From a virus: DNA of 13,447 nt. Positions within the stretch are counted from its first letter, which is position 1. Each line of letters opens with the position of its first letter. Below are positions 603 to 13,232 of the stretch, in pieces. Under the pieces are notes generated by a model that saw only the letters and a program-made list of their open reading frames with translations, had not been told where the DNA came from and ran no database searches. The DNA lies in UHGV virus genome UHGV-0125438; one strand, written 5' to 3'. The translations under genes were made by a program, and so were the position numbers.

Positions 603-3116
603 ATGCCAGTTGTACCAACAACATCGGGCCGTCAGGTTCAAAGCAGAGGGATTTCGACGCAGGGATTCTCATCGTTTCAGACACCAAATGTCGGTGATGT
701 ACTTGGCGATGTTGCAGAGCAATATGCAGGTATTATTGCGCAGGCAAAACAGCGTGCGAATGTTGCTATGGCTCAGGATGCTTCTCTTAGCTTAAGCCAG
801 ATAAGCAGCGATCTGCTGAATAACCCTGAAACAGGTTTGCTTAACCTGAAAGGGAAAAATGCTATTGGAAAAGGTCAGGAGTATACGCAGCAGTTTGATG
901 CCCAGGTCGAGCAACTGGCTATGTCGCTGCCGGATGAACAGGCTCGTAATGCTTTCATGCAGCAGGCACAGCAGCAGCGCATTCAGTTCACTACGCAGGC
1001 CGGGCGGCACGAGATAGGGCAAATTAATGCCTACGAAGAAGGTCAGTTTCAGGCGACGCTGCTGAATAATGGTAAAAATGCCGCAGCATTGTATGGCGAC
1101 AATGCCGCATATGTATTGGCTAATAAGCAAACTTTCCAGCAAATTGAGGATTACGGCATTGCGCATGGCTGGAGCGACGAGCAAATCCAGGCCAAGAAAA
1201 TCGAGTTTAAAGAGAAGGTTGCTGATGCCGCATTGTCCCAGTGGTCGGCAAACAATGCGACCGCATTCATCCAAAGTAATGGCGAGTTAAGTGATACTGC
1301 TGCTGGAGCTCGCCGTGCTGTAGCAGATAGTGACTCTTCCGAGCGTGCCCGTGGCATACGCAACAATAACCCAGGAAATCTCGAATACAGCAAAACTAAT
1401 CCGTGGGTAGGCCAGACCGGTGATGATGGTCGATTTGCTAAATTCGAAACACCTGAACACGGGATTCGTGCATTAGGGCGGAACCTGATGTCGTATCAGC
1501 GGCAGGGTATTGATACAGTCAGCGAGATAATTAATCGCTGGGCACCGCCTACTGATAAAAATGACACTATGTCGTATATCAAAGCAGTGTGCGAACAACT
1601 TGGCGTTTCTGCTGATGAGCCTCTCGATGCATCAAATCCTGATACCCTGAAGGCGCTTTGTGCAGCCATTATCCATCATGAGAACGGTAGCCAGCCATAC
1701 AGTGATCAGCAGTTAACTGCTGGTGTCAGTGCAGCACTTGGTTTATCAACAATTCCAACCAACACCAAACGCTATACCGGTAATGCAGCATTCGATGCGG
1801 CCTCTCCTGAGGCGCAGGCAAGTTTTATGCGACAGGCGGATCAACTGCGTCGGCAGCAGCAGGCTGAATATAAAACGATGATTGACAGCCAGGTTCGCGA
1901 TGCGACGGCTGCGTATATGCGTGGCGTTGAATTTCCTAATCCACCTGGTGAGGCTGATTTTATTGCAGCTTATGGCGTCAGAGAAGGAAACCTGCGATAT
2001 ACCGAGTTCAGAAATACGCAGATCGCCGGACAGTATATAGGCTCTTTCCGCAACATGCCGACAAGCAGCATTACAGCATATGTTGAGCAATTACGCCCGG
2101 ATACTGGTGAGACAGGGGAGGGGTATGCGGCACGCGCAGCTCTTTATGACAACGTTGTTTCGGCTGCAAATCAGGTGATAAAGCAGCGGCAGTCGGATCC
2201 TGTGCAGTTCTCTCTTGCCTCCGGACAGGCAAAGCCTATCGACATGAGCAATAAGGATAACTTTGGACAGAGCGTTGCCTTGCGTGCCGCTCAGGTCAGT
2301 GACCTTGCCAAGTCATATGGCACTCCACTGACGTTCTTTTCCAAAGACGAGGCCAATCAGATCGGTGTTTTCTTTCGTGATGCGCCCGTTTCCCAACAGG
2401 CAGCATATCTCGATACCATCAGGCAAAGCACTGGCGGTGGGCAAGTGTATATGTCAGCACTACAGCAGATCAGTGCCAACGCTCCATCTGCTGCCGTTGC
2501 CGGGATACTGATGGATAAGCCTGGTGGTATTTTGGCAGAAAAAAACTGGTTTAATCCGGATGTTTCCGTGTCTCCTGAAACCGCTGCGCAGACAATTCTT
2601 GCTGGCGCGGCGGCTCGTAAAGGTACTGATGATGCGAAAGGTATTCCGATGCCTAAAGATGCTGATCTTCGCCTTGAGTTTTCTGACATGGTGAAGGATG
2701 CATTTGCTGGTGACGCTCAGGGGGCATCAATGGCATACGAGATCGCAAAGGATTATTACGCTGGTGTGATGGCGAAAAAAGGCGTGGTATCAGGCGAAAT
2801 TGACAATGATGTCTGGAAACAGGCTGTTAACGTAGCTACAGGTGGCGTGCATGACTATAACGGAATGGGGAATGTCCTTTTGCCGTGGGGAATGTCTGCA
2901 GAGCAATTCGATAAGCAGGTTAATCAGGCTTGGAATGAACAAGTTGTCGGCTCCGGGATAAAAACACCGCCTGGTCAGTATGGTTTGCAAAGTTACGGCG
3001 ATAGTCAGTACCTGGTGAAACTTGGTACTGGTTATCTGCTGAAAGATGATGGTTCTCCCGTTGTTCTTAATCTGACACAGAAGCGTCAGAGATTCTCCGG
3101 AGATATTCCGCAATGA
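603..3116 (+). CDS. large internal virion / ejection (core) protein, 837 aa
   Basis: 837-codon ORF with ATG at 603 after GGGGATAATAAG; stop overlaps the next start (ATGA at 3113-3116). First of three consecutive 600-840 aa proteins immediately upstream of the tailspike, matching the ejection-protein block of epsilon15-like podophages as I recall it. Contains a motif block (GIRNNNPGNLEY ... HGIRALGRNL ... INRWAPP) that looks like a discrete domain. Confidence 0.8.
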   Translation: MPVVPTTSGRQVQSRGISTQGFSSFQTPNVGDVLGDVAEQYAGIIAQAKQRANVAMAQDASLSLSQISSDLLNNPETGLLNLKGKNAIGKGQEYTQQFDAQVEQLAMSLPDEQARNAFMQQAQQQRIQFTTQAGRHEIGQINAYEEGQFQATLLNNGKNAAALYGDNAAYVLANKQTFQQIEDYGIAHGWSDEQIQAKKIEFKEKVADAALSQWSANNATAFIQSNGELSDTAAGARRAVADSDSSERARGIRNNNPGNLEYSKTNPWVGQTGDDGRFAKFETPEHGIRALGRNLMSYQRQGIDTVSEIINRWAPPTDKNDTMSYIKAVCEQLGVSADEPLDASNPDTLKALCAAIIHHENGSQPYSDQQLTAGVSAALGLSTIPTNTKRYTGNAAFDAASPEAQASFMRQADQLRRQQQAEYKTMIDSQVRDATAAYMRGVEFPNPPGEADFIAAYGVREGNLRYTEFRNTQIAGQYIGSFRNMPTSSITAYVEQLRPDTGETGEGYAARAALYDNVVSAANQVIKQRQSDPVQFSLASGQAKPIDMSNKDNFGQSVALRAAQVSDLAKSYGTPLTFFSKDEANQIGVFFRDAPVSQQAAYLDTIRQSTGGGQVYMSALQQISANAPSAAVAGILMDKPGGILAEKNWFNPDVSVSPETAAQTILAGAAARKGTDDAKGIPMPKDADLRLEFSDMVKDAFAGDAQGASMAYEIAKDYYAGVMAKKGVVSGEIDNDVWKQAVNVATGGVHDYNGMGNVLLPWGMSAEQFDKQVNQAWNEQVVGSGIKTPPGQYGLQSYGDSQYLVKLGTGYLLKDDGSPVVLNLTQKRQRFSGDIPQ

Positions 3117-4915
3117 GTTACTTTGGCCTTAATCCAGTAAACCAGAATCAGCAGCTTGACGAAGCAGCATCAAATCCAGCTGGCTTTAACAGCGATGTTG
3201 GTTTTTTCGACAATGCTGTAGGAGCGGCATTGTCTGGTTTGTACTCCGGGCTGGTGGCAAAGCCAGATCAGTTGCTATGGGCAGGGATGGATAAAATCGT
3301 ATCCCCGATCGCTCAGTTTGTTAACGAAAACACCTCGCTCAATGATACTTCAGTTTCATACATTGCCGAGCAGAGAAAACTAGCAGAGCAGCAGGTTAAG
3401 CGGCTGACGCCTGATGCCGCGACAACCGGAACCGCCGGGCAGGTTCTTTATGGGTTGTTCGATATGGGAGGGCAGGCTGTTGTCGGTACAACGCTCGGTG
3501 GTCCTGTCGGAGGTGCAGCGGCGGTAACTTCGCTACAGGGTTTTTCTGAGTTTGAACGGCTGACAGCACAGGGTGTTGATTTCAGGACGGCGCAGGAAGC
3601 GGGATTAGTGCAGGGCATTACTGCTGGTGCCGGAACACTGATCCCTATGAGCCTCGGGTTACGTGCTGGTGGTGCGCTGGCGGAAGGTGTGGCGGCTCAG
3701 CTTGCGCGGACGGGTGAGAGTTCAGTGCGACGCGCCGCAGCAACAGCAGTACGTGCAATGCCAGATATTGCCTATGCCGCAGGTACAAATATTGCGTTCG
3801 GTATGGCACAGCGTGGGCTTACTGCAAAAACGCTTCGTGATGGTGGCTATAGCGAAATGGCTAACCAGTATGATGTGTTGGATCGACAGGCAATTGCTAT
3901 TGATGCTGTTCTCGGGGTGGCGTTTGGTGGTGTCGGCAGATTTATTAACTCTCGCGGCGAGTCTACAAACGCACCAAATTTTTCACCAGTTGATATCGAT
4001 GCTGCACTGGCTGCGAATGCCGCTCATCATGCTGAAATTGATATTGCGCCCGGCGTGCCGATCAACGTGCTTTCGCGCAATTCTCACATTCAGGCTCTGC
4101 GAAAAGCTATGTCTGATGTTAGCCAGGGGAGACCTGTAGACGTTGCCAGCATTGTTGAGTCTGCATCTTTCAGTGAAATTCCTGGGCGCAAGAGTCTGCT
4201 GTCTCAGGCAGTTAATGAGGCTCTGTCATCTGTAGATGATGGAGTAACGGCGCGCGCTATAGAAAATCGGTTGCTTGAAGAACAGGCCGCGCAGCTTTTG
4301 CCGCGTGGAGATAGACAGGTTTACCAGTCTGAAATCGCTAATAGCCAACGAATTATCGACAATCTCACTGAACAGCGCGCACAAATTCTTGCAGAAGAGC
4401 CAACTGGTAGCGGTAAAGCTTTGTCTCGTGCTCGATCAGATAAACAGGCAAGAATTCGCGATATTGACCAACGAATCCGGCAGGCACAAGAACGCCTGGA
4501 ATTTTCCCGTAACGCGTTGGCACCGCATGAGCCTGGCGGTCAGTTTTTTGAAGCTCGAGCAGAACTGGCACGGAGACAGCAGGCTGAAAGTGAACTTAAT
4601 GCTCAGGCTGTTTCATTCTATAAAACAGCAGAGGTCAGGACGCCAGACGAAGTAGCTCCTTTTGAGCCCGGTAAGATATTGCAACAGACAGAACAAAAAA
4701 TGATGGCAGATCCGGCAGGGGATATTGATCTGCGTATAGCTGAAGACTCGCTGCTTGAATCTCCGGACATGATAATCACCGTGCTGGATGATGATGGTAA
4801 TCCACAATCGCGCAGTGCGCGTGAAGTACTGGATGAAGTGAACAGGGAAAGTGAGCAGGCAATACAGGATTCCAGCCTGTTTGATGTTGCTGTGGCGTGT
4901 TTCTTGAGAGGTTAA
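3113..4915 (+). CDS. internal virion / ejection protein, 600 aa, with Gly/Ala-rich hydrophobic segments
   Basis: ATGA start/stop overlap with the upstream gene; 600-codon ORF. Residues about 100-290 carry repeated small-residue hydrophobic stretches (LGGPVGGAAAVTSL, GITAGAGTLIPMSLGLRAGGALAEGVAAQLA, AIDAVLGVAFGGVG) followed by a charged, helix-prone C-terminal half. Confidence 0.8.
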   Translation: MSYFGLNPVNQNQQLDEAASNPAGFNSDVGFFDNAVGAALSGLYSGLVAKPDQLLWAGMDKIVSPIAQFVNENTSLNDTSVSYIAEQRKLAEQQVKRLTPDAATTGTAGQVLYGLFDMGGQAVVGTTLGGPVGGAAAVTSLQGFSEFERLTAQGVDFRTAQEAGLVQGITAGAGTLIPMSLGLRAGGALAEGVAAQLARTGESSVRRAAATAVRAMPDIAYAAGTNIAFGMAQRGLTAKTLRDGGYSEMANQYDVLDRQAIAIDAVLGVAFGGVGRFINSRGESTNAPNFSPVDIDAALAANAAHHAEIDIAPGVPINVLSRNSHIQALRKAMSDVSQGRPVDVASIVESASFSEIPGRKSLLSQAVNEALSSVDDGVTARAIENRLLEEQAAQLLPRGDRQVYQSEIANSQRIIDNLTEQRAQILAEEPTGSGKALSRARSDKQARIRDIDQRIRQAQERLEFSRNALAPHEPGGQFFEARAELARRQQAESELNAQAVSFYKTAEVRTPDEVAPFEPGKILQQTEQKMMADPAGDIDLRIAEDSLLESPDMIITVLDDDGNPQSRSAREVLDEVNRESEQAIQDSSLFDVAVACFLRG

Positions 4916-4920
4916 ATTAA

Positions 4921-7395
4921 ATGAGACAGGAATGTATACAAGCGGTCCAGCAGGCGGCGCAGCGCACGTTAACGGCGCGAGAAATACAGAACATTGAAGA
5001 CCGCATTTATCGAAATATGCGCTCCATTGCTCGTGATGATCCGATGTCGTGGCGACAACTTTCCGAATCAGAACGGTTGTATCGTGCAGCACAATTGGCA
5101 TCTGAAGAATTACAGCGAGAAGCGGCATTAAAGAAACGTCGTGTGGCTCTCACTATAGCCGCACGTCAGAGATTGGATAAATTTATCAATAGCTATCAAG
5201 GGGCTGATGGGAAACTTGGCGCTCTTAACCGTACTATTGCTTTTAATGCAGACGGTAAATCGAATTTCCTCTCTGTTGAATCCAGAACAAAAGCCACTCG
5301 TGATTATGCATTGAGTCAATTGCAGGAGGCATTTGAAGCAGTTGATCCTCGCTTTTTTGGCCTGTTTGAAGATGAAGCTGGCGTGCGTGACCTGGTATAT
5401 GAAATGCGAGGGCAAAATACTGGCAATGCTAAAGCAAGAAAAGGTGCTAAGGCGTGGAGAGAAGTGACAGAGCTACTGCGCCGCCGGTTTAATGATGCTG
5501 GTGGGGACATTGGCTATCTCGAAAACTGGGGGATCCCTCAACATCATTCTATGGAAAAGGTTGGGGCGGTATCAAAGGATAAGTGGGTTAGCGATGTTAT
5601 AGGTAAGCTGGATCGCAAATATTATACCCGAGTCGATGGACAACTGATGAACGATGCCGAGTTGTCTGCATTTCTTGGAGAGGCTTATAACACGATCGCT
5701 ACTGGTGGGCTGAATAAGCTTACTGATACCGGAATGCGAATTTCCGGCGCACGTGCTAACCGTGGTAATGCATCACGACAGATACATTTCAAAGATGCAG
5801 ATTCCTATCTGCAATATCAGCAACTTTATGGCGATCGCTCTCTATGGGAAATCATGGTCGGTCACCTGGAAGGTATCAGTAAAGATATTGCACTGGTGGA
5901 AACATATGGCCCAAACCCCGATCATGTTTTCCGCTCTCTTCTTGATCAGGTGAAGGCAGAAACTGCAACAGCTAACCCGAGTAAAATCGGTAAAGTCGAG
6001 CGGCTGGCGAACAACACAGAGAATCTGTACAACTTTATTTCCGGAAAGACACAGCCTGTAGCGAATCCGCACATCGCGCGATGGTCTGACAATATCCGCA
6101 ACTGGCTGGTTGCCAGCAGACTCGGATCCGCGTTGCTGTCATCGTTCTCTGATCTTGGAACCATGTATCTGTCTGCGAAGGTTACCAACCTTCCAATGAA
6201 CCAGTTATTCCGCAACCAGCTTGAAGCTATGGACCCAACGAACCGTACAGAACTTGCGCGGGCGCGCCGCGCTGGTCTGGCGATGGAATCTTTACTTGGC
6301 AGCGTTAACCGCTGGGCGATGGATAATATGGGGCCGTCAGTGTCTCGTTGGGCGGCAACGGCGGTAATGCGTGCCAGTGGGCTTACAGCATGGTCAGATG
6401 CGCACAAGCGCGCCTATGGCGTAACCATGATGGGAAGCCTGGGAGAAGTAGTGTCACGGACAGCAGACCTTCGTAGCCTCGATGACTCTGATTTTCGTAT
6501 CCTGAAAAGCAAAGGGATTACTGACACAGACTGGAGAGTATGGAAGCTGGCGCAACAGGAGGACTGGGGGAACGGTAATAATACGATGCTGACACCGGAA
6601 AGCATTATGCGTATCCCTGATTCAGCAGTTAAACATCTTGGTGATCCTGAACGTGTGAAATTTGAGGCAATGCGTAAACTGCTCGGTGCCGTAACTGAAG
6701 AAGTTGATATGGCTGTTATTACACCGGGAGCACGTGAGCAACTGATAACCGGTTCTGGTATTCAGCGTGGAACATGGAAAGGTGAATTAACGAGAAGTGT
6801 TTTCCTGTTTAAATCGTTCCCTATCTCGGTGGTTATGCGTCACTGGTCACGCGCTATGGGTATGCCGTCTGCTGGTGGGCGTGCGGCATATATTGCGACG
6901 TTTATTGCCAGTACGACCATTCTTGGAGCTTTGTCGCAGCAACTTAACGACCTTGCGTCTGGTCGTAATCCTCGCGAGATGACAGGAGAAGATGCCGCAA
7001 AATTCTGGCTTGGTGCTCTATTGAAAGGTGGTGGTCTTGGCCTTTACGGTGACTTTTTATTGTCAGATCACACTAGGTACGGAAGCGGCGCGCTGGCGTC
7101 GATGCTTGGCCCGGTGGCTGGTCTGGTTGATGACGTAGTGAAGATTGCTCAGGGCATACCGTTAAATGCTGTGGAAGGGAAGAGTGAGCAGACTGGTGGT
7201 GATCTGGTGAAGCTGGGGAAAGGTTTGATGCCAGGTGCGAATCTCTGGTACTTGAAGGCGGCTCTCGATCACATGATCTTTAACCAGATGCAGGAGTATT
7301 TTTCACCAGGCTATTTGCGTAAAATGGAGCAACGTTCGAAGAAAGAGTTTAACCAGACATACTGGTGGCGACCTCAGGATGTCACTCCGCAATAA
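4921..7395 (+). CDS. large internal virion / ejection protein, 824 aa
   Basis: ATG at 4921, 5 nt after the previous stop; 824-codon ORF ending TAA at 7393-7395. Third large protein of the block; the only antisense ORFs across it are low-complexity shadow ORFs. Confidence 0.8.
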   Translation: MRQECIQAVQQAAQRTLTAREIQNIEDRIYRNMRSIARDDPMSWRQLSESERLYRAAQLASEELQREAALKKRRVALTIAARQRLDKFINSYQGADGKLGALNRTIAFNADGKSNFLSVESRTKATRDYALSQLQEAFEAVDPRFFGLFEDEAGVRDLVYEMRGQNTGNAKARKGAKAWREVTELLRRRFNDAGGDIGYLENWGIPQHHSMEKVGAVSKDKWVSDVIGKLDRKYYTRVDGQLMNDAELSAFLGEAYNTIATGGLNKLTDTGMRISGARANRGNASRQIHFKDADSYLQYQQLYGDRSLWEIMVGHLEGISKDIALVETYGPNPDHVFRSLLDQVKAETATANPSKIGKVERLANNTENLYNFISGKTQPVANPHIARWSDNIRNWLVASRLGSALLSSFSDLGTMYLSAKVTNLPMNQLFRNQLEAMDPTNRTELARARRAGLAMESLLGSVNRWAMDNMGPSVSRWAATAVMRASGLTAWSDAHKRAYGVTMMGSLGEVVSRTADLRSLDDSDFRILKSKGITDTDWRVWKLAQQEDWGNGNNTMLTPESIMRIPDSAVKHLGDPERVKFEAMRKLLGAVTEEVDMAVITPGAREQLITGSGIQRGTWKGELTRSVFLFKSFPISVVMRHWSRAMGMPSAGGRAAYIATFIASTTILGALSQQLNDLASGRNPREMTGEDAAKFWLGALLKGGGLGLYGDFLLSDHTRYGSGALASMLGPVAGLVDDVVKIAQGIPLNAVEGKSEQTGGDLVKLGKGLMPGANLWYLKAALDHMIFNQMQEYFSPGYLRKMEQRSKKEFNQTYWWRPQDVTPQ

Positions 7396-7404
7396 GGATG
7401 AGAA

Positions 7405-7545
7405 ATGATTGCTTTTATTCTTGTTGTATTTGTGCTTGTTGCCCTTGGCGTTATGAATCGTAAATGTATCATTGAAGACGGTGAATTTGCTGTAGCAGTT
7501 GTTTTGATATTATCTGGTGTAGCAGGGCACATAGGTTTGTCATAG
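7405..7545 (+). CDS. small hydrophobic protein (46 aa), hypothetical
   Basis: Absent from the supplied ORF track (below its length cutoff). ATG at 7405 lies 7 nt after AAGGA (7393-7397) and 9 nt after the upstream stop. My translation is MIAFILVVFVLVALGVMNRKCIIEDGEFAVAVVLILSGVAGHIGLS, two hydrophobic stretches around a charged loop; stop TAG at 7543-7545. Confidence 0.4.
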   Translation: MIAFILVVFVLVALGVMNRKCIIEDGEFAVAVVLILSGVAGHIGLS

Positions 7546-7565
7546 CTTGAGTGTGACATGTCACA

Positions 7566-7581
7566 GGCCGCTTTCGCGGCC
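7566..7581. terminator. GC-rich hairpin (GGCCGC-TTTC-GCGGCC) between convergent genes; possible bidirectional terminator or RNA-stabilising stem
   Basis: Perfect 6-bp GC stem with a 4-nt loop, sitting between the end of the + strand small ORF (7545) and the stop of the - strand gene (7589-7591). No clean poly-U tract on either strand, so terminator function is uncertain. Confidence 0.3.
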
Positions 7582-7588
7582 CTTAAAT

Positions 7589-7846
7589 TTACCGGATTTG
7601 TTTTCGTAATTGTTCGGCACAATAGTCGAGATGTGTTTGCAGATCCTGCATAGACATCTGTGAGCTGGTGACGTAGTTAATCAGTGCAGTCAGTTCGGCA
7701 AGTGGGCCATCGACATTAAATCCATCCTTATCGAGATCCCGGAGTAATTTCATCAAGTGCGATCCCTCCACCAGTGACCTGACGCCTCCCGGCGTGTGAA
7801 TCCTTTCGGTAAATCCGTCTTCCAGTGGATAGTGATACTGCTGCAT
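7589..7846 (-). CDS. small antisense protein (85 aa), unknown function, apparently LexA/SOS-regulated; candidate antirepressor or SOS-induced moron
   Basis: Only convincing - strand gene in the window. I place the start at the internal ATG (7846-7844) because GGAGAAGATAAG sits just upstream on the - strand; the track's longer 126-aa form would run through the LexA box and an AT-rich low-complexity stretch. Product begins MQQYHYPLEDGFTERIHTPGG. A LexA box lies about 20 bp upstream. Confidence 0.55.
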   Translation of the reverse strand: MQQYHYPLEDGFTERIHTPGGVRSLVEGSHLMKLLRDLDKDGFNVDGPLAELTALINYVTSSQMSMQDLQTHLDYCAEQLRKQIR

Positions 7847-7865
7847 CTTATCTTCTCCATGCAAT

Positions 7866-7885
7866 AACTGTATGTTTATACAGTA
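7866..7885 (-). promoter_or_regulatory. LexA binding site (SOS box): AACTGTATGTTTATACAGTA
   Basis: CTGT-N8-ACAG with flanks matching 17 of 20 positions of the E. coli LexA consensus TACTGTATATATATACAGTA, both CTGT/ACAG half-sites intact. It sits in the AT-rich intergenic region just upstream of the - strand gene starting at 7846. Confidence 0.6.
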
Positions 7886-8041
7886 ACAAATAATTTGTTT
7901 GCTATCCAGCACGTTTTGCAAATTACCCGAAAGGTAATATCTATTGGTATTTATAGTCTTTTTATCCATATATGGTTTTTCAGGTAATAGAATAACCAGA
8001 TATGCGGCGCAACGGGTGCTGCGACTATCTGGAGATTTAAC

Positions 8042-10393
8042 ATGACGGTCTCAACCGAAGTTGACCACAACGAATACACCGGTAACGGCGTTACGACATC
8101 ATTCCCTTATACCTTTAGGGTTTTCAATAAATCTGATCTAGTAGTGCAGGTGATTGACCCTGAAGAGAATATCACTGTGCTGGCTCTTGATACTGATTAC
8201 ACAGTCACTGGTGCGGGAGGGTATAACGGCGGCAATGTAATTCTGTCGAAGGCACTGGCTAATGGTTATCAGATTTCCATATCGCGAGAACTGCCGGTTA
8301 CTCAGGAAACAGATCTTAGAAACCAGGGTAAGTTTTTTGCTGAGGTGCACGAGGATGCGTTTGATAAGCTGACTATGCTCATACAGCAGGTAAGTAGTTT
8401 ATTCGGGCTGGCGCTACGTAAGCCATCGAGTATCGCAAACTGGTATGACGCGCTGAACAACTACATCCGTAATCTGTGCGACCCACGAGACCCACAGGAC
8501 GCGGCTACCAAGAACTATGTCGATACGCTGGCAAGTGGCAACTTGAGCCGTACTCTGCGCGTTCCTGAGCCCATTAATCAGCTACCATCAGCAGTTGACA
8601 GGGCAAACAAAATGCCCGCGTTTGATAGCATGGGTAATGCAATTGTCGTTCTCCCGCCATCAGGTTCCGCATCTGAAGTTCTGATAGAGCTGGCAAAAAG
8701 TGACGGCTTCAAATTGATAGGGCAATTCCCTAACGTCACAGTTCTCCGTGCAACGGAGCCAGCTTCCGATGGTCAGCGGGTGCTCCTGAAAGAATATACC
8801 TCTGGTACAGGTTACGGTGGTGGTCAGCTTCGCGCAGTGCTTGATGGAAGTGCATATACAGACAACGGCGTTACCGTATTCAAGACTCCTGGTGGAGCGG
8901 CATGGATTCGTGTTAATGCTGATATCATTAACCCATTAATGGCTGGCGCAGTGCCTGATGGAGTTACCCCGTGCTCAGCAGCAATTAACGCCATGTTTGC
9001 TGTTGGCAAGAGAATGCAGTTTACAGGTGGTGATTATCTTCTTGATGCCACTATAACATTGCAAGCAGGTAGGTCTGTAGATTTTGGATCATCAAGGTTA
9101 ATCCAGGGTACTTCGCTGGCAAATTATATATTGGCGATAAGGGGGGATAATACACATACCTCAGGTGGTTTTATAGTTGGCACAGGTGTCAGGGCTGGGG
9201 CAAACAGTGTGGTGTCTGCGGTATTAGTTGCTGATACCTCTTATAGTTATGTTAAAGGAATGACAGTAAGAAGGGTCCCTGGCTCTGGTATTCAGATGAT
9301 CAATTGCACACGTTGTAAAATTCAGGATTGCATTTCTGAAAATAACTGGGGTATGGGTATTGAAGACCGTTACGGGACATTCAATGAAATTATCAATTCT
9401 GTCGGTAACTATAATGGTTATCTGAGTGATACAGAAATATCTGATGGCGGCAGAGGATGTATTGTCTGGAAGAGCACTGGTACAACCTTTAAAGGAAATC
9501 AAACATTCGGAAATAGCGAGTACGGCATTCGTGTGTATTCACAATCTGGAGATGATGCCACTACACGTTACATCCACATTTTCGACCATCTGGCTGGCGA
9601 TAACAAAAAAATAGACATCTACATTTACAATGATGCAGGAACACTACTTAACGTTGAGTTGAGTAATTGCCATATCCATAGATGGAGCCAGTCATTTAGC
9701 GGAAGCTATATGATTTCTTTGCAAGGAACTCGCTGCCATTTCAATGGAGGAAGTATAACAAAATATGGTGACATTTACGATTCAACGGCAATCCATTGTA
9801 GCAATGGCGACAATATCACAGTTGAAAACGTCAGCATTTCTAACGTATCTGCTGCTTTCGGTAACACTGCCAATAATACTACCGTAAGAAATTGCTCTGC
9901 TTCTTGTGGCGTTGTTATGACAGGTACAGGTGGAACCACCGGATATCTGACATTTGAAAATTGTAACTTTAGCCACACTGGCGCAGGTACATCTGATATA
10001 GCTTTCACAGTAACCTCTGCTACAAAACTTGAAGGGGTCAGGTTCAACGGATTCTTTAGGAATGTTTCATGGAACAATGAACCTCTAATCCTTATAGATT
10101 GTCACAGCACAAATACAACTGGAGACGCAATCAGAATGTACGGAGATGGTGTTGGAGCGTTCTTCCACTCTGGCTGTCGTTGGGATGTCCCAACAGTTCC
10201 TGCCTGGCTTGGAAGCTTAGTGAAGCAAGGATCATCTCTCCCTGTGCTTTACGATACCGCCGCTCCAACCACTTTGACCTGGCCAAGGGGATCGCGATGC
10301 ATAAATTCCTCTCCTGCTGTCGGGAGCCCTAAGGAGTGGGTATGTGTTACCGCCGGCACTCCTGGCACTTGGCAGTCAACAGGAAATCTCTAA
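8042..10393 (+). CDS. tailspike protein (783 aa): conserved N-terminal particle-binding domain plus beta-helix receptor-binding / polysaccharide depolymerase domain
   Basis: ATG at 8042 after GGAG; 783-codon ORF. The N-terminus MTVSTEVDHNEYTGNGVTTSFPYTF matches, from memory, the conserved tailspike N-terminal module of epsilon15/phiV10-like phages. The C-terminal two-thirds is rich in short Asn/Gly/Ser/Thr-containing repeats (NVSISNVSAAFGNTANNTTVRNCSASCGVV, and similar), typical of right-handed parallel beta-helix depolymerases. Confidence 0.85.
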   Translation: MTVSTEVDHNEYTGNGVTTSFPYTFRVFNKSDLVVQVIDPEENITVLALDTDYTVTGAGGYNGGNVILSKALANGYQISISRELPVTQETDLRNQGKFFAEVHEDAFDKLTMLIQQVSSLFGLALRKPSSIANWYDALNNYIRNLCDPRDPQDAATKNYVDTLASGNLSRTLRVPEPINQLPSAVDRANKMPAFDSMGNAIVVLPPSGSASEVLIELAKSDGFKLIGQFPNVTVLRATEPASDGQRVLLKEYTSGTGYGGGQLRAVLDGSAYTDNGVTVFKTPGGAAWIRVNADIINPLMAGAVPDGVTPCSAAINAMFAVGKRMQFTGGDYLLDATITLQAGRSVDFGSSRLIQGTSLANYILAIRGDNTHTSGGFIVGTGVRAGANSVVSAVLVADTSYSYVKGMTVRRVPGSGIQMINCTRCKIQDCISENNWGMGIEDRYGTFNEIINSVGNYNGYLSDTEISDGGRGCIVWKSTGTTFKGNQTFGNSEYGIRVYSQSGDDATTRYIHIFDHLAGDNKKIDIYIYNDAGTLLNVELSNCHIHRWSQSFSGSYMISLQGTRCHFNGGSITKYGDIYDSTAIHCSNGDNITVENVSISNVSAAFGNTANNTTVRNCSASCGVVMTGTGGTTGYLTFENCNFSHTGAGTSDIAFTVTSATKLEGVRFNGFFRNVSWNNEPLILIDCHSTNTTGDAIRMYGDGVGAFFHSGCRWDVPTVPAWLGSLVKQGSSLPVLYDTAAPTTLTWPRGSRCINSSPAVGSPKEWVCVTAGTPGTWQSTGNL

Positions 10394-10432
10394 TGTGATA
10401 TCCTCATTAACAAGGACGTTTTTGAGGTGTTT

Positions 10433-11809
10433 ATGTCAGTTTCCAGAAGAAATTTTATTAAATTAGCTGCGGCCATCGGCGCGCTGTCAGGATCTGGTCT
10501 TCTTTTTGCAGATTTTGTTGCTGGAAGGAAAAACCGCGTATTCATTATTTACGGACAATCCAACTCAACAGGAGCCGTTGATTATTCACAGACCTGGAGA
10601 ACACCAAGCCCATGGGATTCTTATCTTGAATCATATGAGGGTGAGAGAGACGGTAGTAAATTCATCACAACTGATTTGGCAAGTGCATTTACTTTGTCCT
10701 CAGGCGGCGCAAGCTTAACCAATTTAGACAGAATGGCATTTGGTATTGATGCAGGAGAAGGGCCTGTATACGGAATAATTTCACATATCTCAAAAGCGTT
10801 TCCAAATGACAATCTTATTATCTTCGGGCACGGAAGGGGATCCCAGTATATAGAGCAACTTATTAAGCCTAGCAAAGATTTAATTCTTAATGGTGACAAC
10901 TATAACAAACCTCTAACTAAAGAGTCTTCTGACTACAATGTAGTATCAGGAAATAAATCACTGCTTTATTATCGCGAGCCAAAATTCCGCTACCCTTATC
11001 TGAACGGTATGTGGATGCTCGAAAAAATAAAAGATATTATCAAAAGTGATATTCAAGTTGATGGCATCTTCTGGATTCAGGGGGAAAATGATGCCATCGC
11101 CCCTAAAGGATATTCTGAAAAACTTCTATCATTCAGAAATGATTACGTTAAAGATATTGTAAAAATCACAGGGCAGGGCAAAGAGCCAGAGTTTATTTTT
11201 GAGCAAAGCAATTACTGTTGGCATGGTTTTAAAACCGAAGGTAGAAGGATAAACTCACACTTTGGTCTTAACGTCGAGCAACGCATGGCCCATGATGAAG
11301 CAAAACATTCCGGCATTAAGATGTACATCTCTGGCCCAAGATATCACCTGACGAACGAAATTCATATGTACCCACATGCCCAGCGTGCACATGGCGAAAA
11401 AATGGCACAGGCGTATTTAACTAGTAAGTTGTCAGGTTCATCATGGTCACCTCTATGTTATAAATCACATTCTATCGATGGTAACAGCATTATTATAAAA
11501 TTTAATATTCCTGTGAAGCCATTGCAATTTAGAAAAACCCTCAACGGAATGTATTCATTTATAAAAGATGGTTGTCCTATGGGTTTTCATTTCACAGGAA
11601 AAAAACTATCTGCTAGCGACGTTAAGATCATTTCAGATGATACTGTGAGCATCAATACTTCCGGCCTTAAAGGTACGGTGAGTTATCTTAAAGAGTCACG
11701 GATAGGAGAGCTTTGCGATAGTGATGAATTCCCAAATCATTTTAAAGATCGCTATCATGCAGACAATTGCATGCTGAATTATTGCCTTCCGTTTGAGATA
11801 GAAATTTAG
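10433..11809 (+). CDS. Tat-exported SGNH/SASA-family carbohydrate esterase (sialate O-acetylesterase-like), about 458 aa; candidate O-acetyl esterase acting on surface polysaccharide
   Basis: N-terminus MSVSRRNFIKLAAAIGALSGSGLLFA has a twin-arginine motif (SRRNFIK) followed by a hydrophobic h-region. The mature part begins IIYGQSNSTG (SGNH block I as in the SASA family GQSNMxG) and later has WIQGENDA (block III, GxND). Start chosen at ATG 10433 (GAGG 5 nt upstream) rather than the track's GTG at 10427. The gene is visibly AT-rich and sits 39 bp after the tailspike stop. Confidence 0.75.
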   Translation: MSVSRRNFIKLAAAIGALSGSGLLFADFVAGRKNRVFIIYGQSNSTGAVDYSQTWRTPSPWDSYLESYEGERDGSKFITTDLASAFTLSSGGASLTNLDRMAFGIDAGEGPVYGIISHISKAFPNDNLIIFGHGRGSQYIEQLIKPSKDLILNGDNYNKPLTKESSDYNVVSGNKSLLYYREPKFRYPYLNGMWMLEKIKDIIKSDIQVDGIFWIQGENDAIAPKGYSEKLLSFRNDYVKDIVKITGQGKEPEFIFEQSNYCWHGFKTEGRRINSHFGLNVEQRMAHDEAKHSGIKMYISGPRYHLTNEIHMYPHAQRAHGEKMAQAYLTSKLSGSSWSPLCYKSHSIDGNSIIIKFNIPVKPLQFRKTLNGMYSFIKDGCPMGFHFTGKKLSASDVKIISDDTVSINTSGLKGTVSYLKESRIGELCDSDEFPNHFKDRYHADNCMLNYCLPFEIEI

Positions 11810-11934
11810 GCAAATCACCTCTAGGGTAATTTCGTTAAGAGTTATCCGATCAAATTTAATCCACATATGGTTTATTGTGTATGATGAACTCACCAACTAA
11901 GGGGGTTCTTTATGCACATTAAACGGTGGTCACT

Positions 11935-12339
11935 ATGTCGCACTCGTTAACCACTGAAACGCTGAATCAGGGGCTTAGCCTGAGCGCGCTGATGTCTGTG
12001 GTCGCGGGTGCGCCGCCTGAGGTGGCTTTAGGGGCGCTCGCTGGCGCGGTAATTTTTGTTACCTCGGCGGTGGAGTATCCCATAAAGCGACGGTTACTTC
12101 TGGCGTTCCTCAGCTTCTTCTGCGGCCTTCTCTTCTACAAACCGACAGCAACACTTCTCATCGGCTTCGCATCCGCTTTCCCTGGTATTACCACAGATAT
12201 GTTTGAGAAAGGTGTTGCTTACTCAGCAGGGGCGTTTGTTTCTTCAATCGTTGCTGTTGGTATCGGTACCTGGCTGTATCACCGTTCTGGAAATCCACGC
12301 GACCTGATTCCGGGGAGAAAAGACGATGATCAGTCCTGA
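11935..12339 (+). CDS. multi-pass membrane protein of the lysis cassette (about 134 aa); putative holin or holin-associated protein
   Basis: Three to four hydrophobic helices (LSLSALMSVVAGA, LGALAGAVIFVTSAV, LLLAFLSFFCGLLFY, AGAFVSSIVAVGIGTWLY) and a charged C-terminus (RSGNPRDLIPGRKDDDQS). It directly precedes a second small membrane protein and the endolysin. Start is ambiguous: ATG 11935 with GGTGG upstream, or the track's GTG 11926. Confidence 0.65.
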   Translation: MSHSLTTETLNQGLSLSALMSVVAGAPPEVALGALAGAVIFVTSAVEYPIKRRLLLAFLSFFCGLLFYKPTATLLIGFASAFPGITTDMFEKGVAYSAGAFVSSIVAVGIGTWLYHRSGNPRDLIPGRKDDDQS

Positions 12340-12613
12340 GCTCATCCTGAACGCCGCTATATGTGGCGGCATTGCAATCCGAGTCCTGCTGTTCCGCCGT
12401 GACGGGTCACGCCATCGCTGGTGGGGAGGGTGGCTCGCCTATCTGCTGATCGTCGTTGCTGCCAGCGTACCTATCCGGACGTTCTACGGGTACTACGTCA
12501 GCGCCGACTGGTCAGAAATCATCATCAAAGCCGTGTTCCTGGCTGCGCTGATCAAGACAAAAGGGAACGTGGTACAAATCTTCAAGATAACGAGGTCCCA
12601 GCATGGACATTAA
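12326..12613 (+). CDS. putative holin (95 aa)
   Basis: ATG at 12326 after GGGGAG; overlaps the upstream gene by 14 nt and the endolysin start by 11 nt. Small protein with two to three hydrophobic segments and a basic C-terminal tail (KTKGNVVQIFKITRSQHGH), as expected for a holin. Confidence 0.65.
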   Translation: MISPELILNAAICGGIAIRVLLFRRDGSRHRWWGGWLAYLLIVVAASVPIRTFYGYYVSADWSEIIIKAVFLAALIKTKGNVVQIFKITRSQHGH

Positions 12614-13232
12614 ACAATTCCAGCGTGCAGCTGGTGTCAGTGAGGTACTGGCCACGCGCTGGTTCCCGCATATCACCGCAGCAATGAAAGAGTTTGGCAT
12701 TGAGCATCCGCTGCACCAGGCGATGTTTATCGCGCAGGTGGGGCATGAATCCGGCGGATTTACCCGGCTGCAGGAGAATTTTAACTACAGCGTGACCGGG
12801 CTGGCAGGATTCGTCCGCGCCGGGCGACTCACCCAGGGTCAGGCCAACGCGCTGGGCCGCCGTGCCGGCGAACCATCGTTACCGCTGGAGCGCCAGCGTG
12901 CGATAGCCAACCTGGTGTACAGCAAACGCATGGGGAACAACGGGCCGACAGACGGCTGGTTTTACCGCGGGCGCGGGCTTATCCAGATCACCGGGCTGAA
13001 CAACTATCGCGACTGCGGCAACGGCCTGAAGGTTGATCTGGTGCAGAAGCCAGAGCTGCTGGCACAGGATGAGTATGCAGCCCGCAGCGCGGCGTGGTTC
13101 TTCGCCACCAAAGGCTGCATGAAGTACACAGGCGACCTAGTGCGCGTCACGCAGATCATTAATGGCGGGCAGAACGGTATCGACGACCGGCGTGCGCGGT
13201 ACATCACTGCCAGTAAGGTGCTGGCGGTATGA
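12603..13232 (+). CDS. endolysin, glycoside hydrolase family 19 (chitinase-like lysozyme) type, 209 aa
   Basis: Motifs FIAQVGHESGGF and YRGRGLIQITGLNNY are, from memory, characteristic of GH19-type endolysins of enterobacterial phages. Position between the holin and the spanin fits a lysis cassette. GC-rich relative to neighbouring genes. Confidence 0.8.
   Translation: MDIKQFQRAAGVSEVLATRWFPHITAAMKEFGIEHPLHQAMFIAQVGHESGGFTRLQENFNYSVTGLAGFVRAGRLTQGQANALGRRAGEPSLPLERQRAIANLVYSKRMGNNGPTDGWFYRGRGLIQITGLNNYRDCGNGLKVDLVQKPELLAQDEYAARSAAWFFATKGCMKYTGDLVRVTQIINGGQNGIDDRRARYITASKVLAV

Follow-up and report, generated by a model that had tools for sequence, protein, structure and literature searches.

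O-antigen conversion genes beside tailspike genes are already known, as are tailspikes that are themselves esterases and esterases of the SASA family encoded in prophage late regions (NanS-p). The conversion proteins gp21 and gp22 of epsilon15 and the O-acetyltransferase Oac of phiV10 are encoded in the slot between the tailspike gene and the holin-like gene, and they act on the O-antigen that is used by the phage's own tailspike; the acetylation state varies in phiV10, and conversion by epsilon15 also abolishes O-acetylation. Virion-borne esterase fibres and tailspikes are exemplified by gp63.1 of G7C and by the acetyl-esterase tailspikes of Vi phages. Here we analyse the same slot in virus genome UHGV-0125438, in a stretch of 13,447 nt that we call the window, where the gene of a predicted esterase follows the tailspike gene after a gap of 39 nt. 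We propose that this gap is the linker of a mobile cassette and that the esterase is expressed mainly together with the tailspike.

A hairpin that masks the ribosome-binding site of a downstream gene couples the translation of this gene to that of the preceding one in the coat and replicase genes of RNA phages and in the IF3-L35-L20 operon. The SGNH receptor-binding proteins of Klebsiella prophages have been described as virion-borne esterases (PMC13123978). NanS-p of the Stx prophages is encoded in the late region, in the order Q, stx, nanS-p, S, under the control of the Q antiterminator (PMC10462455); the role described for it is nutritional, with sialic acids of the host as the substrate, and a 2026 preprint reports that a processed esterase decorates the phi24B capsid.

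Results

The tailspike gene (8042-10393, plus strand, 783 aa) ends with the stop codon TAA at 10391-10393, and the esterase gene (10433-11809, plus strand, 458 aa) starts with ATG at 10433, leaving the gap of 39 nt (10394-10432) that a preliminary description of this DNA had reported. Its statement that the esterase has a ribosome-binding site of its own is also confirmed: the Shine-Dalgarno sequence GAGGTG can be read at 10424-10429 (plus strand), ends 3-4 nt before the ATG and is invariant in the six loci compared below. GTG 10427 was considered as the start codon and ruled out. A 1-nt insertion in a homologous locus (L006) breaks that frame, so that ATG 10433 is the true start.

By searching with the esterase protein and with the spacer sequence, we recovered five further independent copies of the tailspike-spacer-esterase arrangement, which gives six loci including the window. 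In all six, the two genes have the same orientation, with the esterase gene coming second after a gap of 39 nt (40 nt in L006), and 33 of the 39 linker positions (10394-10432, plus strand) are invariant. Between the window and L006 the linker is identical at 37 of 39 positions, against a four-fold site identity of 0.36-0.38 overall (binomial P = 3.7e-14) and 23 identical four-fold sites out of 63 within 60 codons on either side. L006 and L017 agree at 39 of 39 linker positions with a four-fold site identity of 0.48 (P = 2.6e-13). Among the diverged pairs, four-fold identity in the flanking genes is 35-48% and the P value of linker conservation ranges from 1e-5 to 4e-14; within 60 codons, 20-25 of 59-63 four-fold sites are identical, compared with 35-39 of the 39 linker bases. 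DNA identity is also high in the final ~80 nt of the tailspike gene and the initial ~60 nt of the esterase gene, which reflects protein-level conservation only. The comparisons indicate that the linker is under purifying selection, well beyond the need of a 6-nt ribosome-binding site.

The six copies, whose tailspikes begin with four different adaptor domains, occur in epsilon15-like, P22-like, TSP1/gp66-adaptor and myovirus-type backbones. They comprise, besides the window, P22-like prophages of Escherichia coli PSJ-36 and LR-25 next to dacD (L002/L003; esterase 97%, with 96% DNA identity over the match), a contig that is cut inside the tailspike gene (L004; esterase 83%), a phage with baseplate-J, wedge and collar genes (L006; 77%), a locus whose tailspike has a TSP1/gp66-type N-terminus (L016; 79%) and one whose tailspike has the P22 head-binding domain (L017; 82%). 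An identical esterase is present on an IMG/VR contig of 39,435 bp.

The tailspike of the window begins with an N-terminal adaptor specific to the epsilon15/phiV10 backbone (8042-8698, plus strand), where PHROG tail-fibre families match residues 1 to ~227, and continues with the receptor-binding beta-helix domain (8699-10393, plus strand; Pfam Beta_helix), which forms the left part of the cassette. From ~8699, near residue 220, nucleotide identity to the window is 95% in L002, 85% in L004 and 72% in L006. The homology of the cassette ends at the esterase stop (11803-11811), and homology to epsilon15-like prophages restarts at 11814; these limits therefore define a unit of receptor-binding domain, spacer and esterase. 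The GC content is 0.38-0.42 over ~9000-11999, the region of the receptor-binding domain and the esterase, versus 0.50-0.61 in the backbone. Since the low-GC block also takes in the receptor-binding domain, the unit is the whole cassette and not the esterase alone; such low GC is a trait common in O-antigen gene clusters. Thus, the aligned sequences identify the receptor-binding domain, the linker and the esterase as a mobile two-gene cassette among several unrelated temperate phages.

The virulent Kuttervirus fGh-Ecl02 encodes a tailspike whose receptor-binding part is 74% identical in amino acids to that of the window over its full length, indicating that the binding domain has been exchanged between temperate podoviruses and Ackermannviridae. 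After this homologous tailspike gene, fGh-Ecl02 has neither the spacer nor the esterase; unrelated sequence follows and then another tailspike gene. Because the linker is absent there, it belongs with the esterase. The homologous fGh-Ecl02 gene lies at 1196-4192 (L041, ON212266.1), and the phage was isolated on Enterobacter cloacae. Its neighbouring tailspike, annotated as G7C-like, was dropped as an esterase pairing, the only Pfam match being the gp66/TSP1 N-terminal domain.

The cassette is carried by 2 of 5,426 complete E. coli genomes. No relative was found in the species-representative genomes by a single-protein scan, and no match by the linker pattern; the metagenome contigs gave only one homologue, distant and fused. 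The L016 phage has two different O-antigen-modifying functions with differing gene architecture: after the esterase, on the opposite strand, lies gtrABC, a gtrA/gtrB/gtrC-type glucosylation operon (5475-8214, minus strand). A further locus (L007, 8001-8897) holds a 298-aa esterase fragment with 63% identity that lacks the N-terminal part, including the TAT (twin-arginine translocation) signal and the GQSN serine motif. It lies beside dacD, the chromosomal site of the intact PSJ-36 prophage, and looks like the decayed remnant of a cassette-bearing prophage.

The preliminary description had proposed that the esterase is co-transcribed with the late genes, on the ground that the gap held no terminator, hairpin or promoter-like element. 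The first of these statements stands: a consensus scan of the plus strand over 9239-12033 returned zero terminator-like sites. The absence of a terminator within 39 nt tells little by itself, because only ~0.016 are expected by chance, and it is the conservation of the linker that is informative; the junctions of L002, L004 and L006 were scanned as well, and a canonical terminator was likewise not found. The scan for promoter-like sites at 9/12 or better returned zero on the plus strand over 7472-11729. On the other hand, the linker folds into a hairpin with a CCUCA/UGAGG helix, and the promoter-like element TCAACA-17-TGaTATCCT is conserved in the six loci, so that the other two statements are not confirmed. 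Other candidates in this region were dropped, namely a CRP site at TGTGA, whose second half-site matches only 1/5, a promoter formed by TTGACC/TTGACA at 10274 and CATAAA/TATAAA, with a spacing of 20 nt, and a promoter TTGGCA-16-TAATGT (10369), which is not conserved in L006.

The structural operon ends at a strong hairpin terminator found by the terminator scan (7566-7581), and the tailspike gene therefore begins a separate unit. A motif that is palindromic in part, CCAYATRTGGTTT, stands 35-76 nt ahead of the opening gene in several blocks of same-strand genes. Its only exact matches in the window are CCATATATGGTTT at 7966-7978 (plus strand), 76 nt upstream of the tailspike ATG and a candidate start marker of the tailspike transcription unit, and a second copy, CCACATATGGTTT, at 11861-11873 (plus strand), 75 nt before the ATG of the holin-like gene; with the palindromic reverse strands included, this makes 4 matches versus 0.68 expected. 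The copies in phiV10 (L009; 3304-3319, 20917-20932, 24735-24750, 33131-33146 and 35115-35127) precede the head-gene block, the tail fibre, the lysis cassette and two early-region blocks, mostly after annotated terminators. We found no description of the CCAYATRTGGTTT motif, which may act as a promoter or activator site specific to the genus. Judged by this motif, which marks the starts of the tailspike and lysis units and has no copy before the esterase, the esterase belongs to the tailspike unit.

Since the architecture is conserved across backbones and no terminator separates the two genes, co-transcription with the tailspike is the best-supported reading of these sequences and would be the main route of esterase expression, at odds that we place somewhat above even. 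A strong terminator lies upstream of the tailspike gene in the P22-like copies. Berget, Poteete and Sauer reportedly found in 1983 that the pre-tailspike terminator of P22 is passed only by antiterminated late transcription; antiterminated polymerases that pass such a terminator would go on to transcribe the esterase. A hairpin after the esterase is present in L006 only. ZX5 has an empty slot, and a G+C-rich hairpin directly follows its tail-fibre stop.

The predicted hairpin (10402-10427, plus strand) pairs the esterase Shine-Dalgarno sequence through CCUCA (10402-10406) and UGAGG (10423-10427), with an inner AAC/GUU helix, and its anti-Shine-Dalgarno arm starts 8 nt past the tailspike stop codon. 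The predicted energy is -8.3 kcal/mol for these 26 nt; for a stretch of 43 nt that takes in the start codon it is -10.8 kcal/mol, a value equalled by 1.75% of shuffles. The GAGG of the Shine-Dalgarno sequence is predicted to be paired in the read-through context in all six loci (probability of being unpaired 0.00-0.07). L006 and L017 share the changes U10408G and C10417U, each of which turns a mismatch into a pair, and the inner helix grows to 5 bp. UGUUUAUG stands directly after the hairpin, which is not a canonical terminator. The modelled fold suggests that translation of the esterase from the tailspike mRNA is damped or coupled.

The esterase is assigned to the SASA family by Pfam (PF03629; 38.2 bits versus a cut-off of 24.8), the match covering only positions 107-225 of the 226 of the profile. 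G41-Q42-S43-N44 are at least 90% conserved in our alignment (A2), and Q216-G217-E218-N219 and H311/H315 are invariant; we infer that the residues of GQSN (S43), QGEND (216-220) and H311 are catalytic. A TAT signal covers approximately residues 1-26/30 (10433 to ~10522), where S4-R-R-N-F-I-K10 is followed by the hydrophobic LAAAIGALSGSGLLFA. This signal scores 19.4 bits in TIGR01409 (cut-off 16.7) and 18.1 in Pfam TAT_signal, which is under the cut-off of 22.7, and RefSeq names the 97% homologue a TAT signal protein. The protein is predicted to be a TAT-exported carbohydrate O-acetylesterase. The AlphaFold model, built on an 11-sequence alignment, is poor (pLDDT 58, pTM 0.60), and its Foldseek matches to the Pan3 phage tailspike (the best, at 3.8e-10), the XAC1771 acetylesterase (2e-6), the FI8 deacetylase (8e-6) and 1zmb (1e-3) are taken as weak support only. 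A sequence search of the PDB gave only a marginal match (E 0.35).

PHROG 4201, 'tail fiber protein', matches the esterase. A search of 5.8 billion clusters gave only ten proteins of the family: three full-length TAT forms, one truncated form of 298 aa, and six relatives of 658-769 aa (38-40% identity) which have a fibrous N-terminus in place of the signal peptide, one of them located in a siphovirus-type tail module. The more distant viral homologues (22-29% identity) are, in 22 out of 22 cases, open reading frames of 634-788 aa that carry the esterase domain at the C-terminus and have no signal peptide, and no close relative was found among 50,697 deposited phage genomes. Because the wider relatives are C-terminal domains of tail fibres, the protein resembles a tail-fibre esterase that has lost its anchor to the virion and gained a TAT signal instead. 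A fused form of 714 aa is present in a P2-like prophage of Serratia fonticola (L010/L011, 7001-9145), directly after the portal gene and before ogr, an odd site outside the tail-fibre region.

In both E. coli lysogens of the cassette, wzx and wzy are of the O93 family, and the O-antigen cluster includes an acyltransferase. The O93 repeat contains Man2Ac6Ac; the units carry two acetyl groups in about half of the cases, one in a quarter and none in a quarter (PMC10191223). The likely substrate, judged from these gene clusters, is O93-type O-antigen (Man2Ac6Ac), and the deacetylase would be paired with an O93-type tailspike.

The gap after the esterase (given as 116 nt) is a conserved lysis-cassette leader (11810-11935, plus strand), which holds the second copy of the motif, a long hairpin at ~11870-11926 (z = -5.05) and no terminator-like site. 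Both phiV10 and epsilon15 preserve this hairpin, and the record of epsilon15 has an RNase III site annotated at the corresponding place; a covariation check over the three phages was uninformative. The Shine-Dalgarno region of the holin-like gene (GGTGG) is predicted to pair with AUCACC at 11814-11819 when the window is folded by itself, and instead with CCAY of the motif in the consensus fold of the three phages. According to these models, a read-through RNA might be translationally silent at the holin-like gene and an RNA begun inside the hairpin open. Rfam gave no match at the linker or at the lysis leader. A Histone3 match at 7561-7607 (E 0.044, below the gathering score) corresponds to the terminator hairpin and was taken as chance.

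By the gene content and similarity of its remainder, the window belongs to a temperate podovirus in the epsilon15/phiV10 group (Uetakevirus), of which it covers the late region; where the backbone is shared, its DNA is ~82% identical to that of phiV10. The encoded proteins match T7-gp14-like internal virion proteins, tail fibre/tailspike, two holin families and a GH19 endolysin. Four leading genes (51-590, 603-3116, 3113-4915 and 4921-7395, plus strand), placed by gene order, are followed by a small membrane-protein reading frame (7405-7545, plus strand) and, beyond the terminator, by a minus-strand gene similar to gp19/phiV10p24 (7589-7846; phrog_450, with a weak anti-repressor match). The lysis genes are the holin-like gene (from ATG 11936 to 12339), the holin gene (12326-12613) and the endolysin gene (12603-13232), all on the plus strand.

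A perfect LexA box, CTGTATGTTTATACAG, lies at 7868-7883, just upstream of the minus-strand gene at 7589-7846. Its position before this gp19/phiV10p24-like gene suggests an SOS-controlled antirepressor; the related phage SPC32H is said to have an SOS-controlled antirepressor of this kind. The palindrome ATTACCcgaaaGGTAAT at 7922-7938 matches a site annotated as repressor operator in epsilon15 (ATTACCtgtaaGGTAAT). Given the location of this operator-like palindrome, with the antirepressor-like gene on one side and the tailspike gene on the other, a repressor may directly control the tailspike unit.

Alternative readings of the linker

The alternative that survives best takes the linker mainly as a promoter. 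A candidate sigma-70 extended -10 promoter is found at 10376-10404 (plus strand), with TCAACA (10376-10381), 17 nt and TG-a-TATCCT (10396-10404). It has T-12, A-11 and T-7, the extended TG and a -35 element that matches at 4/6 with the correct spacing; with 8/12 plus TG it falls short of what the consensus tool requires, and the tool does not report it. With a weight matrix that we defined after the site had been seen, the element scores 9.8 bits and ranks 4th on the plus strand and 11th of 26,822 positions, whereas the candidate -10 regions upstream of the tailspike (8.0) and of the lysis genes (8.3) score lower; shuffled sequences gave 9.4 such matches per 13.4-kb strand, that is ~0.04 per 60 nt, a chance of ~4% under this post hoc model. 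The element is present in all six loci, and the sole variable base in TGnTATCCT is the 'n' (in L016); the conservation of the -35 is uninformative because it lies within conserved coding sequence. As a promoter, the element is plausible but unproven.

Under this alternative, transcription in the prophage state would start near 10410-12, downstream of the anti-Shine-Dalgarno arm, and the resulting RNA, which lacks this arm, would be freely translated. The esterase would then serve lysogenic conversion or superinfection exclusion by removing O-acetyl groups from the O-antigen within the periplasm, and late read-through would be incidental or damped by the hairpin. The Shine-Dalgarno sequence is predicted to be more open in the short leader (probability of being unpaired 0.17-0.48 in five loci, versus at most 0.07 in the read-through context), although the short leader of L017 is still predicted closed (0.02). 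The window has no terminator after the esterase, and a constitutive promoter would thus transcribe into the holin, endolysin and spanin genes; since a strong one would reach the lysis genes, any promoter in the linker is expected to be weak. We regard the linker as mainly a promoter as possible but rather doubtful, and it can coexist with co-transcription as a dual mode.

The biology of the enzyme also speaks for expression in the prophage. TAT export requires an intact, energised cell, and the signal therefore implies that the enzyme works in such a cell; the free-standing esterase was found only in temperate phages and prophages, and virulent fGh-Ecl02, with the same receptor-binding domain, does not have it; the slot between the tailspike and lysis genes is the classical conversion slot; and the hosts make O-acetylated O-antigen. 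The preliminary description had favoured a role during infection over classical seroconversion alone. This preference is not supported, as TAT export, the temperate restriction, the absence from the virulent phage and the conversion slot fit a role in the living lysogen at least as much.

A combination of both modes, in which the linker would be a switch with a promoter and open leader in the lysogen and a tailspike-coupled fold in lytic growth, is in our view a rather unlikely, speculative extension. A weak linker promoter would provide the lysogen with a trickle of periplasmic esterase that keeps the O-antigen deacetylated, and in lytic growth the burst would free a soluble receptor-modifying enzyme in a set ratio to the particles, a situation that can be likened to the receptor-destroying enzymes of influenza and coronaviruses. 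The esterase would in this case be a retargeted tail-fibre enzyme that travels with the matching tailspike domain across phage morphotypes.

Far less probable is that the hairpin acts as a weak intrinsic terminator or attenuator, at which most tailspike transcripts would end and leave the esterase largely uncoupled. The 5-bp stem with 3 G-C pairs is followed by UGUUUAUG (5 U in 8), epsilon15 has an annotated terminator directly after the tailspike gene, and ZX5 has its G+C-rich hairpin there. However, the terminator scan does not report the linker hairpin because 16 nt with internal loops lie between the stem arms, the energy is only -8.3 kcal/mol with an A/U-rich inner helix, and late transcription is antiterminated in P22-like contexts. 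An attenuated esterase would moreover need its own promoter, so that this alternative collapses into the preceding promoter reading.

Recombination near the junction is visible in the alleles. The window and L002 switch at ~10343-10373, L002 departing mainly in the last ~150 nt of the tailspike gene; the window and L004 switch at ~10395-10440, L004 being identical at the tailspike 3' end and divergent in the esterase (region compared 10253-10440). The alleles are also reassorted: L004 and L017, for example, have a four-fold identity of 0.78 for the esterase and of 0.33 for the tailspike. A further function of the conserved linker is probably that of a crossover point. Nevertheless, it is very improbable that the linker has no regulatory role beyond the ribosome-binding site and owes its conservation to repeated recombination or gene conversion at a module junction, as the switches close to the junction and the reassorted alleles might suggest, given that recombination uses identity and does not create it, that the four-fold sites on both sides are near saturation while 35-39 of 39 linker bases are identical, and that conversion tracts would need to match the linker exactly in each lineage.

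Discussion

The best overall explanation of the junction, to which we assign a probability of roughly 0.55, combines the linker cassette with co-transcription, control by the hairpin and deacetylation of the O-antigen. The layout of the junction, the cassette, its conservation, and the assignments of family and export signal are established from the sequences; the co-transcription, the part played by the hairpin, the substrate and the biological purpose are inferred. The 39-nt gap would be the selected internal linker of a mobile cassette of tailspike domain and esterase. With no terminator between the genes, the tailspike mRNA would include the esterase each time the tailspike unit is active, which means in lytic growth. 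On this polycistronic RNA the linker hairpin would pair the esterase ribosome-binding site, and translation of the esterase would be held down or coupled to the ribosomes that finish the tailspike. The enzyme would then be exported in folded form to the periplasm and, there and in the medium after lysis, remove O-acetyl groups from the polysaccharide that the partner tailspike recognises.

Several points weigh against this explanation. The six copies descend from one ancestral cassette, and their co-orientation therefore counts as one preserved event and not as six. The hairpin shows no two-sided covariation, 7 of its 10 pairs never varying, so that comparative support is absent rather than negative, and the fold is not significant over a 101-nt context (z = -0.81). 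The assignment of the substrate rests on two lysogens that have many identical proteins and are probably clonal. Finally, the linker also fits an extended -10 promoter, which would explain the conservation equally well and allow expression independent of the tailspike.

The claim of the preliminary description that the esterase is co-transcribed with the tailspike during lytic growth thus stands in part: the six co-oriented loci and the missing terminator argue for it, and the -10-like element leaves some room, in our estimate a limited one, for expression in lysogens alongside co-transcription. The combination of own promoter and own terminator that characterises a moron, a prophage cargo gene with transcription of its own in the sense of Hendrix and colleagues, is not what we find, there being no terminator between the esterase and the lysis genes. 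The differing base composition of a moron is present, but for the whole cassette. The features of an operon, namely a common strand, a short conserved gap and no terminator, are found in all six loci.

If the esterase is made together with the tailspike, temperate phages may edit their receptor in lytic growth as well as in lysogeny. This would bear on the loss of progeny to debris, on superinfection, on serotype heterogeneity (O93 being partly acetylated) and on the prediction of host range from tailspikes. The cassette would also offer a compact case of a short intergenic element that controls a cargo gene in two life-cycle states.

Among the known systems, the translationally coupled genes of RNA phages and of the IF3-L35-L20 operon resemble the junction in that the distal Shine-Dalgarno sequence is paired, here by prediction, with a segment just after the proximal stop codon; they differ from the linker, whose stem is short, shows no covariation and is known from prediction alone. 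NanS-p shares with the window esterase the SASA family, the temperate phage and the late region. On the other hand, the Pfam link to SASA is only partial here, NanS-p has another position and no link to a tailspike, and a phmmer search with the window esterase matched no NanS structure.

The virion-borne esterase fibres and tailspikes have a homologous catalytic domain and the same presumed chemistry, deacetylation of the receptor polysaccharide. They differ in that an N-terminal anchor of ~200-500 residues is replaced in the window esterase by a TAT signal of ~30 residues, and in that the tailspike partner is a separate beta-helix protein. With the TAT signal in place of the anchor, the enzyme is expected to go to the periplasm of the producing cell and not to the particle. 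In our literature search we came across neither an O-antigen esterase of a prophage that is TAT-exported or periplasmic nor a conserved linker that joins one to a tailspike domain.

The conversion genes of epsilon15 and phiV10 share the slot, but genes 21 and 22 of epsilon15 and oac of phiV10 lie on the opposite strand and encode integral membrane proteins, and a terminator is annotated after the epsilon15 tailspike gene. The window esterase gene is co-oriented with the tailspike gene, lies 39 nt away, has no terminator on either side, and encodes a predicted soluble TAT hydrolase that removes acetyl groups. Known conversion examples add groups (acetyl, glucosyl) or change the linkage made by the polymerase, and do so with membrane proteins whose genes, in the cases examined, are on the opposite strand; here, the opposite chemistry would be carried out by a soluble exported enzyme that is tied to the tailspike domain by a near-unchanged element of 39 nt.

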